Assembly: GCA_045605445.1 (NCBI GenBank)
Contig: JAZUPZ010000024.1
Span: forward strand, 1,956-65,955
Direction of reading: 5' to 3'
From: Clostridia bacterium
GTDB taxonomy: Bacteria > Bacillota > Clostridia > RGIG6154
Length of the DNA: 64,000 nucleotides
The position numbers and the translations under genes were made by a program. This document shows, piece by piece, positions 7,916 to 53,563 of this stretch. Within the stretch, counting starts at the first letter, position 1. Every line of letters begins with the position of its first letter. Below the pieces are notes generated by a model. It saw nothing but the letters and a program-made list of their open reading frames with translations. It did not search any database and was not told the DNA's origin.

Positions 7916-8444
7916 TGCAAACACAGTTATAAATGAGCTTATTGAGGTTTCAAAGCTCAAAGAAGGTGATGTTCTCGTTATTGGCTGCTCTTCAAGCGAA
8001 ATTATGGGCGACAAAATAGGAACAAATTCCGACGTTGATGCGGCAAAGGCTGTTTTTGAAGAAATTTACTCTGTTGCAAAAGCAAAGGGAATTTTCCTTG
8101 CGGCACAGTGTTGCGAGCATCTTAACCGCGCAATAGTTATTGAAAAGGAGCTTGCAGATAAAAAAGGGCTTGATTGCGTTAATGCAGTTCCTCAGCCCAA
8201 GGCAGGCGGTTCCTTTGCAACAAGAGCCTATGCTTCTTTCAAAAACCCCTGCGTTGTTGAACATATTAAGGCAGATGCCGGACTTGACATTGGCGGAACC
8301 CTTATAGGAATGCACTTAAAGGAGGTTGCCGTTCCGGTAAGACTTTCTTTGAAAAAGATTGGCGAAGCAAATATTTTGTGCGCAAGAACAAGACCGAAAT
8401 TCATTGGCGGAGTTCGTGCAAATTATAACGAAAACCTTCTTTAA
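7893..8444 (+). CDS. YwlG/UPF0340 (TIGR01440) family protein
   Basis: IGCSSSEI, QCCEHLNRA, KAGGS, GLDIGGTLIGMHLK, RPKFIGG; start moved to ATG 7893. Confidence 0.9.
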   Translation: MTNKIKNDANTVINELIEVSKLKEGDVLVIGCSSSEIMGDKIGTNSDVDAAKAVFEEIYSVAKAKGIFLAAQCCEHLNRAIVIEKELADKKGLDCVNAVPQPKAGGSFATRAYASFKNPCVVEHIKADAGLDIGGTLIGMHLKEVAVPVRLSLKKIGEANILCARTRPKFIGGVRANYNENLL

Positions 8445-8462
8445 TTTTTTTCAAAAAAGATA

Positions 8463-8491
8463 TTGACAAACCGCTTTTATTATGTTAGAAT
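8463..8491 (+). promoter_or_regulatory. Sigma-A promoter of tRNA-Ser pair
   Basis: TTGACA-N17-TAGAAT with TG. Confidence 0.8.
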
Positions 8492-8504
8492 AGTTAAGCG
8501 TTAC

Positions 8505-8591
8505 GGAGAGGTGTCCGAGTGGTTTAAGGAGCTAGTCTTGAAAACTAGTGATGCGGAAGCACCGTGAGTTCGAATCTCACCCTCTCCGCCA
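8505..8591 (+). tRNA. tRNA-Ser(TGA)
   Basis: GGAGAGG acceptor stem, anticodon arm CTAGT-CTTGAAA-ACTAG, long variable arm, GTTCGAATC, encoded CCA. Confidence 0.97.
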
Positions 8592-8649
8592 CTTTCAATC
8601 CGTACAACCACTGTACGGATTGAATAATATTAAAATAATTTATACATTC

Positions 8650-8743
8650 GGAGAAGTACCCAAGTCGGCCGAAGGGGGCGGTTTGCTAAACCGTTAGGTC
8701 GGTGAATACCGGCGCAAGGGTTCGAATCCCTTCTTCTCCGCCA
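8650..8743 (+). tRNA. tRNA-Ser(GCT)
   Basis: GGAGAAG acceptor stem, anticodon loop TTGCTAA, long variable arm, GTTCGAATC, CCA. Confidence 0.97.
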
Positions 8744-8771
8744 GCAAAAAAAAGATACCATTCGGTATCTG

Positions 8772-8931
8772 TTTTTTGCTGGCGGAGAAGTGGATTCGAA
8801 CCCGAGAGGGCACTCGCCGTTAAGAAAACGATTGATAATCGTTTTCAGGTGAGTGGTGCGAAGTCCGGTACCGAAGCCAAAGGCTTGGGTGGACAAGCAC
8901 GGCAGATTGCCTGCAATCTGCATCGAATCCC
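8772..8931. repeat. tRNA-linked structured element, copy A
   Basis: Inverted copy of the tRNA-Ser 3' end followed by a multi-stem body with GGTACCGAA; homologous to 9098-9250 and 53144-53289. Confidence 0.8.
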
Positions 8932-9097
8932 GTCTTAAAATTCTTTTTCTCTTTTGCTTGCGGACTGTGAAGTCTCGAGCAAGGTGATTTTCCGGGCACC
9001 GTTAAGAACGGTCGGAAAATAACGAAGCGCAGAGTATCCCGTAAAGTACTTTCTTTATCTTGGCGGATGTCGAGCATCTGTTTTTGTTATCGGAAGA

Positions 9098-9250
9098 GAT
9101 TCGAACACAGAGTGGGCAAAAAACGTCAAAAAAGTTGCCGGTGGCAAGTTTTTTAGTTTTTTGGTGTGCAGACGGGTACCGAAATGCGTTAGCATTTGGG
9201 TCGGCAAACACGACAGACGCGAAGCGGATGTATCCCTTCTTCTCCGCCAG
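9098..9250. repeat. tRNA-linked structured element, copy B, ending in a 19-nt direct copy of the tRNA-Ser 3' end
   Basis: GATTCGAAC...GGGTACCGAA...ATCCCTTCTTCTCCGCCAG (9232-9250 equals 8726-8744). Confidence 0.75.
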
Positions 9251-9326
9251 TGAAAAAAACAACCTATGAACAAAAAGACAAAGAGCTGAACGAAATTAAC
9301 CGTTCAGCTCTTCCATTATTTTTTAC

Positions 9327-10679
9327 TTAATTTCTTATCAGCACTGTCTGATTACTCTTAAGAAGGAATTTTTTCGGATTTAAGTAAGTTTTTGTAAGTG
9401 GGTTTTCTTCGTCGACCATATAAACCTCAAAGCCGTCTTCAAGGTTAATTGAAATTTCTTTGTCTTCCTCGGAAACGTTTGTAATCATAACCGCCTTTTT
9501 GTTGCCATCGGTTGATGCAACGGCATAAACGTCTTTTTCATTTAATTCGCACTCTGCCTGCTTGCCAAGCTGATACATATAACCAAATGCCTTGAATACA
9601 TAGAAAAGCGGACGCGGACAAACGTTGTAGCCGTCAAACATTCCCTGATAGGTGCTTACCATCATTCTTGTATCGTAATAACAGAGCATACTTGTTGGCT
9701 TGTTCTGCATTATAAGAAGCATTGCTGCTGCCTGAGCCGCCGCAAAGGAACTACCAAGAGTTCCCTTTACTCTTGCCGCATTGTTCCACTCGTTAAGCAT
9801 TGTTTCAATTTCGCCGTAGCCGCGTTCCTTTAAGAACTTGTCAACAAACTCTGCTATTATTCCCGTTCCCTCGGCATCAATATAACTATGCCATGAGAAG
9901 AAATCAATGGGTGAGCCATGTTCTTTTATGTAGTCAAAGAAGCCGTATAAGAACTTCATTCTGTATGCATTTTTTTCACCTTCATAACGCTCGCCAAGTC
10001 GTTTTTCAATGTCCATTCCGTATTTTTCAGGCTCTGCAAAAATATTATAAAAGCCTGTTGCCGCATAACCGCCAACCTTTATTGTGTCGCCAAAGCATTT
10101 TTTAAGGTGCTTTGAAGTAATGTCGTAAAGCTCATAATACTGCTCAGGAGTACCTGTCCACATCTGGTTCATATCGGGAGTAGGTCTGTTTTCGGGCTCG
10201 TTCCAGATTTCCCAGTATTTTATACCGTAATGGTAGCCGTCTGCCCAGCCTTCGTTGTAATGTCTTACAATATGTTCGCAGATTCTTGCCCATTTGTTAT
10301 AATCCTTTGGGGGATGAATTCTGTAGGCTCTTATGTTACACTGATTTTCAATTGTAACACCGAGACGGAAAATAGGAGAAACTCCGTATTCGTTAAGCCC
10401 TTCAAGAAGTACATCTGTAAATGCAAAATCATAAGATTCAGGGTCATTTTCGTCCGCATCAAAATCACGGAAAATGTTAGGAATATCAACAAATCTGTTT
10501 CCGCCGAAAGGGCCTCCAACATCGTGAAGTCTTGAATAAGGAATGTTTGCCTCCTGAAAATATTTTATGTGAGAAACATTGATTTTACAGAAGCCTCCCG
10601 TAAAAGGCGGCTGACCTACCGCGTGCATAGGCTTGATTATTCCTGTTTCTTTACCAAAATCTACGTTTATATTTACCAT
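9327..10679 (-). CDS. GH39-like glycoside hydrolase (clan GH-A)
   Basis: WEIWNEPE acid/base motif, DFFSWHSY, LNEWN nucleophile; GGAGG RBS before ATG 10679. Confidence 0.8.
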   Translation of the reverse strand: MVNINVDFGKETGIIKPMHAVGQPPFTGGFCKINVSHIKYFQEANIPYSRLHDVGGPFGGNRFVDIPNIFRDFDADENDPESYDFAFTDVLLEGLNEYGVSPIFRLGVTIENQCNIRAYRIHPPKDYNKWARICEHIVRHYNEGWADGYHYGIKYWEIWNEPENRPTPDMNQMWTGTPEQYYELYDITSKHLKKCFGDTIKVGGYAATGFYNIFAEPEKYGMDIEKRLGERYEGEKNAYRMKFLYGFFDYIKEHGSPIDFFSWHSYIDAEGTGIIAEFVDKFLKERGYGEIETMLNEWNNAARVKGTLGSSFAAAQAAAMLLIMQNKPTSMLCYYDTRMMVSTYQGMFDGYNVCPRPLFYVFKAFGYMYQLGKQAECELNEKDVYAVASTDGNKKAVMITNVSEEDKEISINLEDGFEVYMVDEENPLTKTYLNPKKFLLKSNQTVLIRN

Positions 10680-32395: not shown

Positions 32396-32490
32396 ATGCA
32401 CCGCAAAAGCGGTGCATTTCATGGTTTACCATTTCATTCACCGAAAGGTGAATTTCATTCGTCGCAAGACGAATTTCATTGAATAAATAA
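32396..32490. repeat. ATTTCAT-linked hairpin array, downstream of the four-helix-bundle gene
   Basis: Four hairpins each followed by TTTCAT; first 44 nt repeated at 32960-33003 with 1 mismatch. Confidence 0.85.
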
Positions 32491-52936: not shown

Positions 52937-53013
52937 GGCCCGGTAGTTCAGTTGGTTAGAACGCCTGCCTGTCACGCAGGAGGTCGAGAGTTCGAGTCTC
53001 TTCCGGGTCGCCA
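52937..53013 (+). tRNA. tRNA-Asp(GTC)
   Basis: Cloverleaf, CCTGC-CTGTCAC-GCAGG, GTTCGAGTC, CCA. Confidence 0.97.
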
Positions 53014-53020
53014 TTTTTTT

Positions 53021-53096
53021 GCTGTTGTAGCTCAGATGGTAGAGCACCACATTGGTAGTGTGGAGGTCACGGGTTCGATTCCCGTCAACAGCTCCA
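53021..53096 (+). tRNA. tRNA-Thr(GGT)
   Basis: Cloverleaf, CCACA-TTGGTAG-TGTGG, GTTCGATTC, CCA. Confidence 0.97.
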
Positions 53097-53097
53097 A

Positions 53098-53129
53098 TAA
53101 AAAAACACCCTTTCGGGTGTTTTTTTATT
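53098..53129 (+). terminator. Terminator after tRNA-Thr
   Basis: AAAAAAACACCC-TTTC-GGGTGTTTTTTT. Confidence 0.8.
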
Positions 53130-53143
53130 GGATTTAATTCGTG

Positions 53144-53289
53144 GGGAATCGAACCCTGAGAGGGCACTTGCCGTTAAGAAAACAATTGATAATTGTTTTT
53201 AGGCAAGTGGTACGAATCGGGTACCGAAACCGTAGATTTTGGTCGATGAGTACGGGAAGCTTTCAACGAAAGATTCCTTCCCGTCAACA
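53144..53289. repeat. tRNA-linked structured element, copy C
   Basis: GGGAATCGAACCC (inverse of the Thr T-arm)...GGTACCGAA...TTCCCGTCAACA (direct copy of 53079-53090). Confidence 0.8.
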
Positions 53290-53297
53290 CGTCGCAA

Positions 53298-53563
53298 CAA
53301 ACTCCGTTTCATTCGAAAATACTTTCTGTATTTTCTCATATTCTCCGTTGTTGCTCCTCTTCCGACAAAAGCCCTCTTCGTTTAGCCTTTTGTCGGCTTT
53401 TAAAACCTTTCTGTTTTCATTTTTTTCGGAAACGTGTTCAGCAAATATTCAAACTCCGTTTCATTCGAAAATACTTTCTGTATTTTCTCATATTCTCCGT
53501 TGTTGCTCCTCTTCCGACAAAAGCCCTCTTCGTTTAGCCTTTTGTCGGCTTTTAAAACCTTTC
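53298..53563. repeat. Perfect 114-bp direct repeat, period 152
   Basis: 53298-53411 equals 53450-53563; each copy carries a CCGACAAAAG...CTTTTGTCGG hairpin. Confidence 0.9.

Follow-up and report, generated by a model that had tools for sequence, protein, structure and literature searches.

A compact non-coding element with a conserved folded body and target-matched ends behind tRNA genes of Clostridia

We analysed a 64,000-nucleotide stretch of a Clostridia bacterium genome (GenBank assembly GCA_045605445.1, contig JAZUPZ010000024.1, positions 1,956 to 65,955 of the forward strand), called the window below, which carries three copies of a small structured element next to transfer RNA (tRNA) genes. 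Copies A and B stand in tandem behind tRNA-Ser(GCU), and copy C stands behind tRNA-Thr. The element is linked to tRNA genes, its ends match the local tRNA, and one pair of related genomes differs by its precise insertion. Its body covaries, folds in the tRNA-sense strand, and is conserved well above its flanks. We consider it probable that this is a protein-less insertion element, mobilised in trans and specific for the 3' ends of tRNA and transfer-messenger RNA (tmRNA) genes, whose RNA matters to its life cycle. We infer that the element moves as an excised unit, mobilised by a recombinase acting in trans, and the two target-matched ends of its RNA may help to choose or hold the site.

The features of the two loci in the window are listed here (coordinates, strand, description). 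The three copies were found at the positions given in an earlier reading of the letters alone (the original prediction), as were the inverted T-arm ends, the direct copies of the tRNA ends in B and C, and the compensatory changes, all of which are present in our alignment. Over their full length, the three copies have a mean column identity of 71%.

8505-8591: tRNA-Ser(UGA), from ARAGORN.
8650-8743, plus strand: tRNA-Ser(GCU), the target gene of copies A and B, from ARAGORN and the Rfam tRNA model; T-loop nucleotides 54-60 are 8721-8727, and nucleotides 59-76 are 8726-8743.
8744-8779, strand unassigned: T1, a two-way terminator-like hairpin with terminator scan matches on both strands; the stem-loop at 8753-8770 is flanked by an A-run and a T-run.
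8780-8803, plus strand: 5' end of copy A, comprising the inverted acceptor 3' strand and CCA (8780-8790) and then the inverted T-arm, or anti-T (8792-8803), 47 nucleotides past the tRNA and with one mismatch.
8792-8902, plus strand: conserved body of copy A (covariance model, 114.7 bits), with the P1 hairpin, the P2/P3 domain and the P4-P6 domain containing GGTACCGAA.
8901-8931, plus strand: terminal hairpin P7 of copy A (8901-8921) and a truncated direct copy of tRNA nucleotides 55-63, only 9 nucleotides long (TCGAATCCC at 8923-8931).
8932-9095, plus strand: the stretch separating copies A and B, with a degraded second terminator and a spacer (hairpin at 9062-9082, TTGGCGGA at 9060-9067); presumably the decayed junction of a tandem pair.
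9096-9231, plus strand: copy B, with a degraded anti-T carrying two mismatches (9096-9108), the body (covariance model 9098-9213, 105 bits) and the P7 hairpin.
9232-9249, plus strand: an exact 18-nucleotide direct copy of tRNA-Ser nucleotides 59-76, 488 nucleotides past the tRNA; a displaced native 3' end or attachment (att) repeat.
9281-9312, strand unassigned: T2, a terminator-like hairpin past the direct repeat, from the terminator scan; by analogy with the genome pair G004/G009 described below, probably the original terminator of tRNA-Ser(GCU).
52937-53013: tRNA-Asp, from ARAGORN.
53021-53096, plus strand: tRNA-Thr(GGU), the target of copy C, from ARAGORN and Rfam.
53093-53132, plus strand: T1 of copy C, an 18-pair terminator-like hairpin extending into the CCA end.
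53143-53289, plus strand: copy C, with the anti-T (53143-53156), the body (covariance model 53146-53255), P7, and a 12-nucleotide direct copy of tRNA-Thr nucleotides 59-70 (53278-53289) which is shortened by another repeat.

Reading away from the tRNA, the unit consists of T1, a spacer, the anti-T, P1, P2/P3, P4-P6, P7 and the direct repeat. T1 is a hairpin between an A-run and a T-run which scores as a terminator on both strands, and its stem often extends back over the CCA, which is encoded in the gene here. The spacer is 10-25 nucleotides long and AT-rich, with a weak TAAAAT-like box 7-12 nucleotides ahead of the element. The anti-T is an inverted copy of tRNA nucleotides 51-63, and the direct repeat is a copy of nucleotides 59-76. 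Between them lie P1, a 3-bp hairpin that re-uses the last three bases of the anti-T; P2/P3, a long stem around one of two interchangeable hairpins; P4-P6, a stacked domain with the near-invariant GGTACCGAA and TTGGGT; and P7, a hairpin with a GNA loop that ends 0-2 nucleotides before the repeat. The conserved body is about 110 nucleotides long, and the distance from this core to the repeat is 19-21 nucleotides in 45 of 83 copies. The whole insert has a median size of 203 bp (range 184-229, 87 copies) and encodes no protein. No terminal inverted repeats were found, the identity between the ends being 3.8/15 as against 3.7 in shuffled pairs.

Profile and covariance searches showed the element to be widespread in related bacteria. 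A profile made from the three copies gave 11 strong matches in the 2.14-Mb genome to which the window belongs (G000), and a covariance model built from ten genome copies (113 positions, 36 pairs) gave 13, which puts the total of this genome at 12-13. With this model, 20 of the 41 relatives were found to carry the element in up to 14 copies, among them 15 of the family's 17 genomes. Of the 18 genomes of the order 16 have it, as do 34 of the 150 sampled from the class Clostridia; the carriers in the class represent 16 families. A pattern scan (one genome per species) found at least 118 stretches, and almost all of those listed were metagenome-assembled genomes labelled Clostridia, Acutalibacteraceae, Oscillospiraceae, Ruminococcus or Eubacteriales, from ruminant, horse and human gut. 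The handful of unrelated taxa among the listed stretches gave no match to the covariance model. A blastn search of phage and plasmid collections gave no match to the element, and one IMG/VR contig holds a copy, at the edge of a prophage.

We note that a longer, diverged subfamily has the GCCGGTGGC hairpin and CGGGTACCGCAAG in common with the element. It was seen after tRNA-Trp (G000:C52:55117-55357), where it terminates in an exact copy of at least the last 16 nucleotides of the tRNA, after tRNA-Gln(CUG) (G000:C12), and distal to tRNA-Leu(GAG). The covariance model scores this subfamily weakly or not at all, and all the copy counts given here are therefore floors.

The original prediction knew of no earlier description, and we came to the same result. 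A search of the whole window against Rfam 15 returned only four tRNAs and an unrelated Gut-1 RNA at gathering score, and a scan of 8400-9500 with E up to 10 gave only far sub-threshold matches, on the tRNA end and the terminator palindrome. No description of such an element was found in the literature searched.

In total 158 full-length copies were located, 80 from the window's genome and its relatives and 78 from the pattern scan. Of these, 96 lie 39-64 nucleotides (median 53) behind a tRNA or tmRNA gene and on the same strand. A further 16 are at a contig edge and 12 are further from a tRNA, mostly as second tandem units. The remaining 34 have no called tRNA in the fetched flank, which was only 250 nucleotides for many of the 158 loci, and several of them follow a tRNA fragment that has lost its 5' part, resembling what another island would leave. 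The targets comprise 26 isoacceptors and tmRNA (five cases).

The two ends of the element are matched to the particular tRNA beside which it lies, and by far more than chance, as had been predicted. Among 49 adjacent copies, the inverted match has a median of 13 nucleotides to the cognate tRNA and 6 in 2264 non-cognate pairings, and the direct match has medians of 20 and 5. Inverted matches of at least 12 nucleotides occur in 78% of cognate and 3.9% of non-cognate pairings, and direct matches of at least 14 nucleotides in 88% and 0%. The direct repeat starts at tRNA nucleotide 59 in 33 of the 49 copies, at nucleotide 60 in six and at nucleotide 61 in three. Its boundary is sharp: A58 is invariant in tRNAs, yet of 83 copies only 5% have A directly ahead of the repeat, with G likewise in 5% and a pyrimidine in 91%. 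The inverted copy of the Ser lineage continues through the whole acceptor 3' strand (8780-8790 in the window), and the same extension is present in a diverged relative from another genus.

One copy in the window's genome, at G000:C11:8586-8737, has a direct repeat that matches tRNA-Trp and a degraded anti-T. It is located upstream of an operon for a V-type ATPase, with the tRNA-Trp gene far away on contig C52, and may be a displaced or ectopic copy.

A direct view of the insertion comes from two genomes of one genus, G004 with 8-9 copies and G009 with 2. At tRNA-Thr(CGU) their flanks are colinear, with 77-78% identity, and G004 has 195 extra bp. The extra DNA consists of T1, spacer, anti-T, body and P7, together with a second copy of nucleotides 59-76, and the terminator orthologous to that of G009 comes after this second copy. 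It follows that T1 comes with the element and that the duplication is exactly 18 bp: T1 is an element-borne module. A long target-site duplication that includes the terminator was considered and rejected, since the terminator concerned is missing from the empty site. At tRNA-Ala(UGC), G009 has a remnant only (T1, spacer, anti-T and P1). In G004 this remnant is preceded by a full unit, and an 86-nucleotide repeat results. The prediction of a non-autonomous element tied to tRNA 3' ends is supported by the linkage of the 96 copies, by the matched ends, and by the filled and empty sites of this pair.

Other comparisons between genomes are less direct. G002 has a plain tRNA-Ser(GCU) followed by a terminator, with flanks that are not colinear with the filled loci, and in G009 both tRNA-Lys(UUU) and tRNA-Ser(GGA) are without the element, with flanks not colinear with those of G004. 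These loci show only that the element is no fixed part of those tRNA genes. Between G000 and G001, which belong to the same genus, the tRNA-Thr(CGU) genes differ and the tRNA-Lys(UUU) flanks are rearranged. In the orthologues from genus g5, the contigs stop at the repeat.

The direct repeat is present in 89 of the 96 adjacent copies and absent in seven. It is followed by unrelated sequence in 47 cases. In 17 the duplication continues into a second T1 or spacer, in four it ends at a second anti-T, in 13 it ends inside a second body, and in eight there are full tandem units. We had considered that the distal partial copies were truncated at birth; this was dropped, as distal units can be other subfamilies or older remnants.

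The body of the element has the properties of a folded strand. In 104 distinct sequences, 95.8% of the structure cells pair, compared to 73.2% after shuffling, and none of 500 shuffles reached the observed value. Changes on both sides of a pair occur in 31 of the 36 pairs (863 cells), and when the partners are slid by 1-3 columns the pairing falls to 37-46%. The alignment was fitted to the covariance model, which favours the structure; an independent RNAalifold prediction on ten sequences agrees with the model structure. The covariation reported for the three window copies was retained in the larger alignment. The minimum free energy fold of copy C (-48.6 kcal/mol, z -3.35) is a five-way junction closed by the anti-T and the first bases of the direct repeat, the remainder of the repeat being single-stranded. 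The target-matched closing stem is only 5-7 bp long.

The wobble pairs identify the strand that folds. There are 144 G-U cells and 14 A-C cells, implying that it is the tRNA-sense strand which folds, as RNA or conceivably as single-stranded DNA. A further suggestion of the original prediction, that the minus strand of copy A ends in a tRNA mimic, fits poorly with these counts, and the inverted T-arm would keep only two of the five T-stem pairs. The inverted copy may, as was also suggested there, sequester the 3' half of the pre-tRNA; a hairpin resembling a terminator separates the tRNA from the element. The body is also conserved above its surroundings. The congeners G010 and G014 have orthologous tRNA-Arg(ACG) loci, where identity is 69.8% in the 300 nucleotides upstream, 100% in the tRNA, 84.8% in T1 and the spacer, and 97.7% (126/129) from the anti-T to P7. 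Covariation, strand-specific wobbles and conservation above the flank, as expected of a structured functional RNA, are thus all found here. On the evidence of these alignments, we consider that the body is a functional folded strand under structural selection.

By sequence identity, the bodies are not grouped by tRNA. Bodies that share a tRNA but come from different genomes have a mean identity of 0.685 (45 pairs), those behind different tRNAs within one genome 0.707 (230 pairs), and all other combinations 0.663 (2885 pairs). In one case the body at tRNA-Arg(ACG) in G014 is about 98% identical to that at tRNA-Met(CAU) in G005. The identity runs from the conserved TCGAACCC of the anti-T to AAGCAG, and T1, spacer and P7 are unrelated. 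We therefore conclude that the address module and the body recombine, whether through fresh insertion or through gene conversion among resident copies.

These observations can be assembled into a proposed mechanism for a mobile element. The element would enter at T-loop position 58/59 or, equivalently, right past the CCA with an 18-bp duplication. By supplying its own copy of nucleotides 59-76 and a terminator it would leave the tRNA gene whole, and the native 3' end would be displaced to become the direct repeat. Each lineage would be addressed to one tRNA by a module made up of nucleotides 59-76, terminator, spacer and inverted nucleotides 51-63, and the body of about 110 nucleotides would be common to the lineages and exchanged between them. 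The body would be a functional RNA from the tRNA-sense strand, in which a five-way junction is closed by the inverted copy and the start of the direct copy. Closing in this manner would leave a single-stranded tail identical to the acceptor 3' strand and CCA of the tRNA.

The anti-T is complementary to the sense strand across 58/59, and the 3' tail is complementary to the antisense strand from nucleotide 59 onwards. In the free RNA these two ends pair with one another. Such an arrangement is what a guide would be expected to have, and the ends may act as one. A more specific version of the proposal, which we regard as rather doubtful, is that the RNA is a programmable addressing device. The closing stem would open, the anti-T would pair with nucleotides 51-63 of the sense strand of the tRNA gene and the 3' tail (nucleotides 59-76) with the antisense strand, and the RNA would in this way bracket 58/59. 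Either an enzyme encoded by the host or the RNA itself would then be directed to insert the 200-bp unit there or to keep it in place. If true, this would be a minimal RNA-guided, re-targetable insertion system without a dedicated protein gene.

Several observations weigh against a mobile element with a functional RNA. No mobilising protein was identified among the candidates searched. The -10-like signal ahead of the element is weak (50-68% per position), and a simple promoter scan found no promoter ahead of the window copies. There is only one clean filled/empty pair, from which gain in G004 is not distinguishable from loss in G009, and a search of metagenomes with a 22-nucleotide empty-site junction pattern found nothing. 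An 18-bp repeat is equally expected from unequal recombination or from a staggered cut. Gene conversion among resident copies would make their bodies alike and could be mistaken for recent movement. Finally, copy B, the distal one, has an anti-T that no longer follows the tRNA closely and a P1 that still pairs, which suggests that the tRNA match may be a mark of birth rather than a maintained function.

The candidates for a mobilising partner were searched for by domain. TnpB (PF07282) has no match in the window's genome. The IS110 DEDD domain (PF01548) has none there either; it matches in 15 of the 41 relatives and, like TnpB, does not track the element among them. The presence of a Y1 transposase does not track the element among the relatives. 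The window's genome has four tyrosine recombinases, two of them beside other tRNAs, and the tRNA-adjacent type of integrase does not track the element. Recombinases of the XerC/D type are universal, so that tracking by presence and absence is uninformative for them. The reverse transcriptase domain RVT_1 gave no match in 11 of the 20 element-positive genomes, including G027 (100% complete, 14 copies) and G005 (11 copies). We note that the window's genome encodes a retron-type reverse transcriptase (Ec107-like) and a DRT3a/DRT3b defence pair, at G000:C7:23581-24696 and G000:C30:210174-213672. At G004:C10:110297-110362 and 110518-110853, a partial match to the covariance model lies about 150 nucleotides from a gene for a 254-residue Y1 transposase (RAYT-like); the case is isolated, with no sign of a general link.

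Recombinase-like open reading frames, sought with five recombinase queries, are present at three of the 84 loci of at least 2.5 kb. L111 has a tyrosine integrase, and L026 and the viral contig L228 each have a large serine recombinase. At these last two loci, which are unrelated, the recombinase is part of another insertion, which cuts the tRNA off upstream of the element. The serine recombinase gene (L228:5151-6719, in the IMG/VR contig, and likewise in L026) stands at the edge of that insertion and ends right at the first terminator of the element, and only the last tRNA bases are left upstream. This suggests that prophages with serine recombinases also land in these tRNA 3' ends.

Among other explanations, we judge a family of small RNAs serving the host to be unlikely. 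A common scaffold would bind one protein, and the anti-T, pairing with tRNA nucleotides 51-63, would together with the spare tRNA 3' end address one tRNA. Such RNAs might help to process tRNAs, to control their quality or to mend damaged 3' ends, or might be decoys for toxins that cut tRNA, and the duplications would record only the birth of the genes. Much of what is described above is as expected of such a family: the body is far better conserved than the flanks (97.7% compared to 69.8%), the covariation is strong and the wobble pairs are strand-specific, a genome can hold at least 10 differently addressed copies, and the same tRNA is occupied in several genera, Leu(CAA) ten times, Pro(UGG) eight times and Lys(UUU) eight times among the 96 adjacent copies. 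However, the distribution is patchy, with 2 copies in G009 against 8-9 in its congener G004 and none in two genomes of the family, and bodies at one tRNA in different genomes (0.685) are no more alike than bodies at different tRNAs of one genome (0.707). Copies such as A and C persist with truncated direct repeats, and the tandem arrays, truncated remnants and precise insertion polymorphism resemble mobile DNA.

Three further explanations seem to us very improbable. The first of these would have the copies as scars, that is, the att-proximal arms of larger integrase-bearing islands or prophages in tRNA genes whose interior was lost. An intact tRNA with a displaced 3' fragment is indeed the standard signature of an island, according to the Islander report (PMC4383910), and a recombinase gene lies beside the element at L111, L026 and L228. 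Yet the size is tightly constant at 184-229 bp, without the spread expected of deletion products, 81 of the 84 loci have no recombinase-like open reading frame by the five queries, the recombinases of L026 and L228 are part of a separate insertion, and selection acts on the structure of the interior, as a folded tRNA-sense strand. An origin by reverse transcription is no more credible: here the 3' end of the tRNA would be the point to which an RNA copy is joined or on which it is primed, with the cDNA then fixed beside the tRNA gene. Positions 59-76 are the 18 nucleotides that reverse transcriptases copy from a tRNA primer before A58, and are the length of retroviral primer-binding sites; the junction of the element is exactly past A58, its repeat is 18 nucleotides including CCA, and some distal copies are shortened at variable points. 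Against this, 11 of the 20 element-positive genomes lack an RVT_1 match and the reverse transcriptases of the window's genome are of the retron type and the DRT3 defence pair. Moreover, the gene-encoded CCA makes an RNA origin of the repeat unnecessary, and the folding strand holds tRNA-identical rather than tRNA-complementary sequence. We give equally little credence to an optional ribozyme-type intron or trans-splicing RNA, in which the anti-T would be an internal guide over 58/59 and the body would swap the 3' segment of the tRNA for the copy at the 3' end of the element. In group I introns, the P1/P10 guide spans both sides of the junction. The anti-T similarly covers eight nucleotides on the 5' side and five on the 3' side of 58/59, the layout is that of guide, structured core and "3' exon", the unit is about 200 nucleotides long, and the terminal hairpin abuts the junction. 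But no Rfam group I (RF00028) or self-cleaving ribozyme match was obtained with E up to 10, the pre-junction base A58 is paired to U and not in a G-U wobble, a pyrimidine and not G stands directly ahead of the repeat in 91% of copies, and the upstream tRNA is intact and sufficient in all adjacent cases, so that splicing would be unneeded.

What is seen in the DNA is in line with elements that integrate into tRNA genes, regenerate their target and leave an intact tRNA with a displaced 3' fragment, as described in the Islander report (PMC4383910). Like the islands and prophages of tyrosine integrases, the element inserts in the 3' part of the tRNA, brings a replacement 3' end, keeps the displaced native fragment as a direct repeat from T-loop to CCA, uses tmRNA also as a target, and accretes in tandem. 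The Islander signature of an intact tRNA or tmRNA with a displaced cognate 3' fragment is seen in 89 of the 96 adjacent copies and in the filled/empty pair, but the insert of 184-229 bp has no tyrosine integrase of its own. It also differs from islands in being about 200 bp long without an open reading frame, in having at least 26 targets within one sequence family, in an identity that begins at nucleotide 59 and does not include the whole T-loop, and in possessing an inverted T-arm copy and a covarying RNA body. Sublocation classes of integration within tRNA and tmRNA genes were reportedly set out by Williams in 2002. Mobile DNA classically lands in tRNA genes, and each of its users known to us relies on an integrase, its own or a borrowed one, that has a single fixed target. 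Compared to these known elements, the present one is unusual in its size of about 200 bp, the lack of an integrase, more than two dozen targets, and an RNA scaffold under selection.

Other known systems share some of its features. Integrase-less derivatives include cis-mobilisable elements, satellites, and Xer-exploiting IMEX elements such as CTX phage. The element resembles them in its att-like repeats, its lack of a recombinase, its presumed movement in trans and its frequent tandem arrays, and, as in the CTX attP, its inverted and direct target copies can form one single-strand stem. Unlike the element, those derivatives are limited to a single fixed target, either dif or one tRNA, and lack a conserved multi-helix RNA. 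Guide and scaffold RNAs are known from the IS110 bridge RNA, the TnpB/IscB omega RNA, and the tRNA-homing crRNA of type V-K CRISPR transposons. The element is like them in joining a structured scaffold to short site-matching segments that are complementary to opposite strands of the target, and is unlike them in having its guides at the RNA termini rather than in internal loops, with neither TnpB nor IS110 DEDD in the genome and no Rfam match. Repeats of the REP/BIME, REPIN-RAYT and MITE types are likewise small, non-coding, multi-copy, hairpin-rich, placed past gene ends and prone to break assemblies. In contrast to these, the element has no terminal inverted repeats, has an 18-bp rather than a 2-10 bp duplication, is not tracked by a Y1 transposase, and is strictly tied to tRNA 3' ends, with ends derived from the target. 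In Escherichia coli tyrT, tandem 178-bp repeats lie behind the tRNA, each ending in about the last 19 nucleotides of the tRNA. Compared by description only, the tyrT repeats resemble the element in having tandem units with a copy of the tRNA end, and differ in being confined to a single locus and species and in having no inverted T-arm copy and no covarying structure.

One RNA scaffold has thus been re-addressed to at least 26 tRNAs and tmRNA, and is found in about a quarter of the Clostridia genomes sampled, all from uncultured organisms of the gut. Should the RNA have a part in targeting, the element would count as a natural programmable insertion system of very small size; should it serve the host instead, bacteria would have a family of small RNAs addressed to tRNAs. 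In practical terms, the repeats break metagenome assemblies at tRNA loci, and the extra tRNA-end fragments can mislead programs that find islands.

Other repeats were observed at the same sites. A second small repeat family starts with CGTCG directly after the tRNA-end copy, either after the CCA or, as at the Thr locus, inside the repeat. It has its own terminator-like hairpin, and in the window it forms a tandem pair at 53290-53400 and approximately 53447-53560, which shortens the Thr direct repeat to 12 nucleotides. The same repeat is present directly past direct repeats at G000:C12 and G000:C30, and also in L037 and L038. A REP-like repeat, containing TTTTTTCAATGAAAT and reiterated GTGAAAT hairpins, occurs behind tRNA or tmRNA ends and behind element ends: after tmRNA in G000:C46, after tRNA-Leu(CAG) in G000:C47, and after copies of the element in G000:C44 and G000:C11. 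Elsewhere in the window, the Gut-1 RNA (RF01706) is located at 32411-32481 on the minus strand, with a score of 51.8 bits compared to a gathering score of 50.

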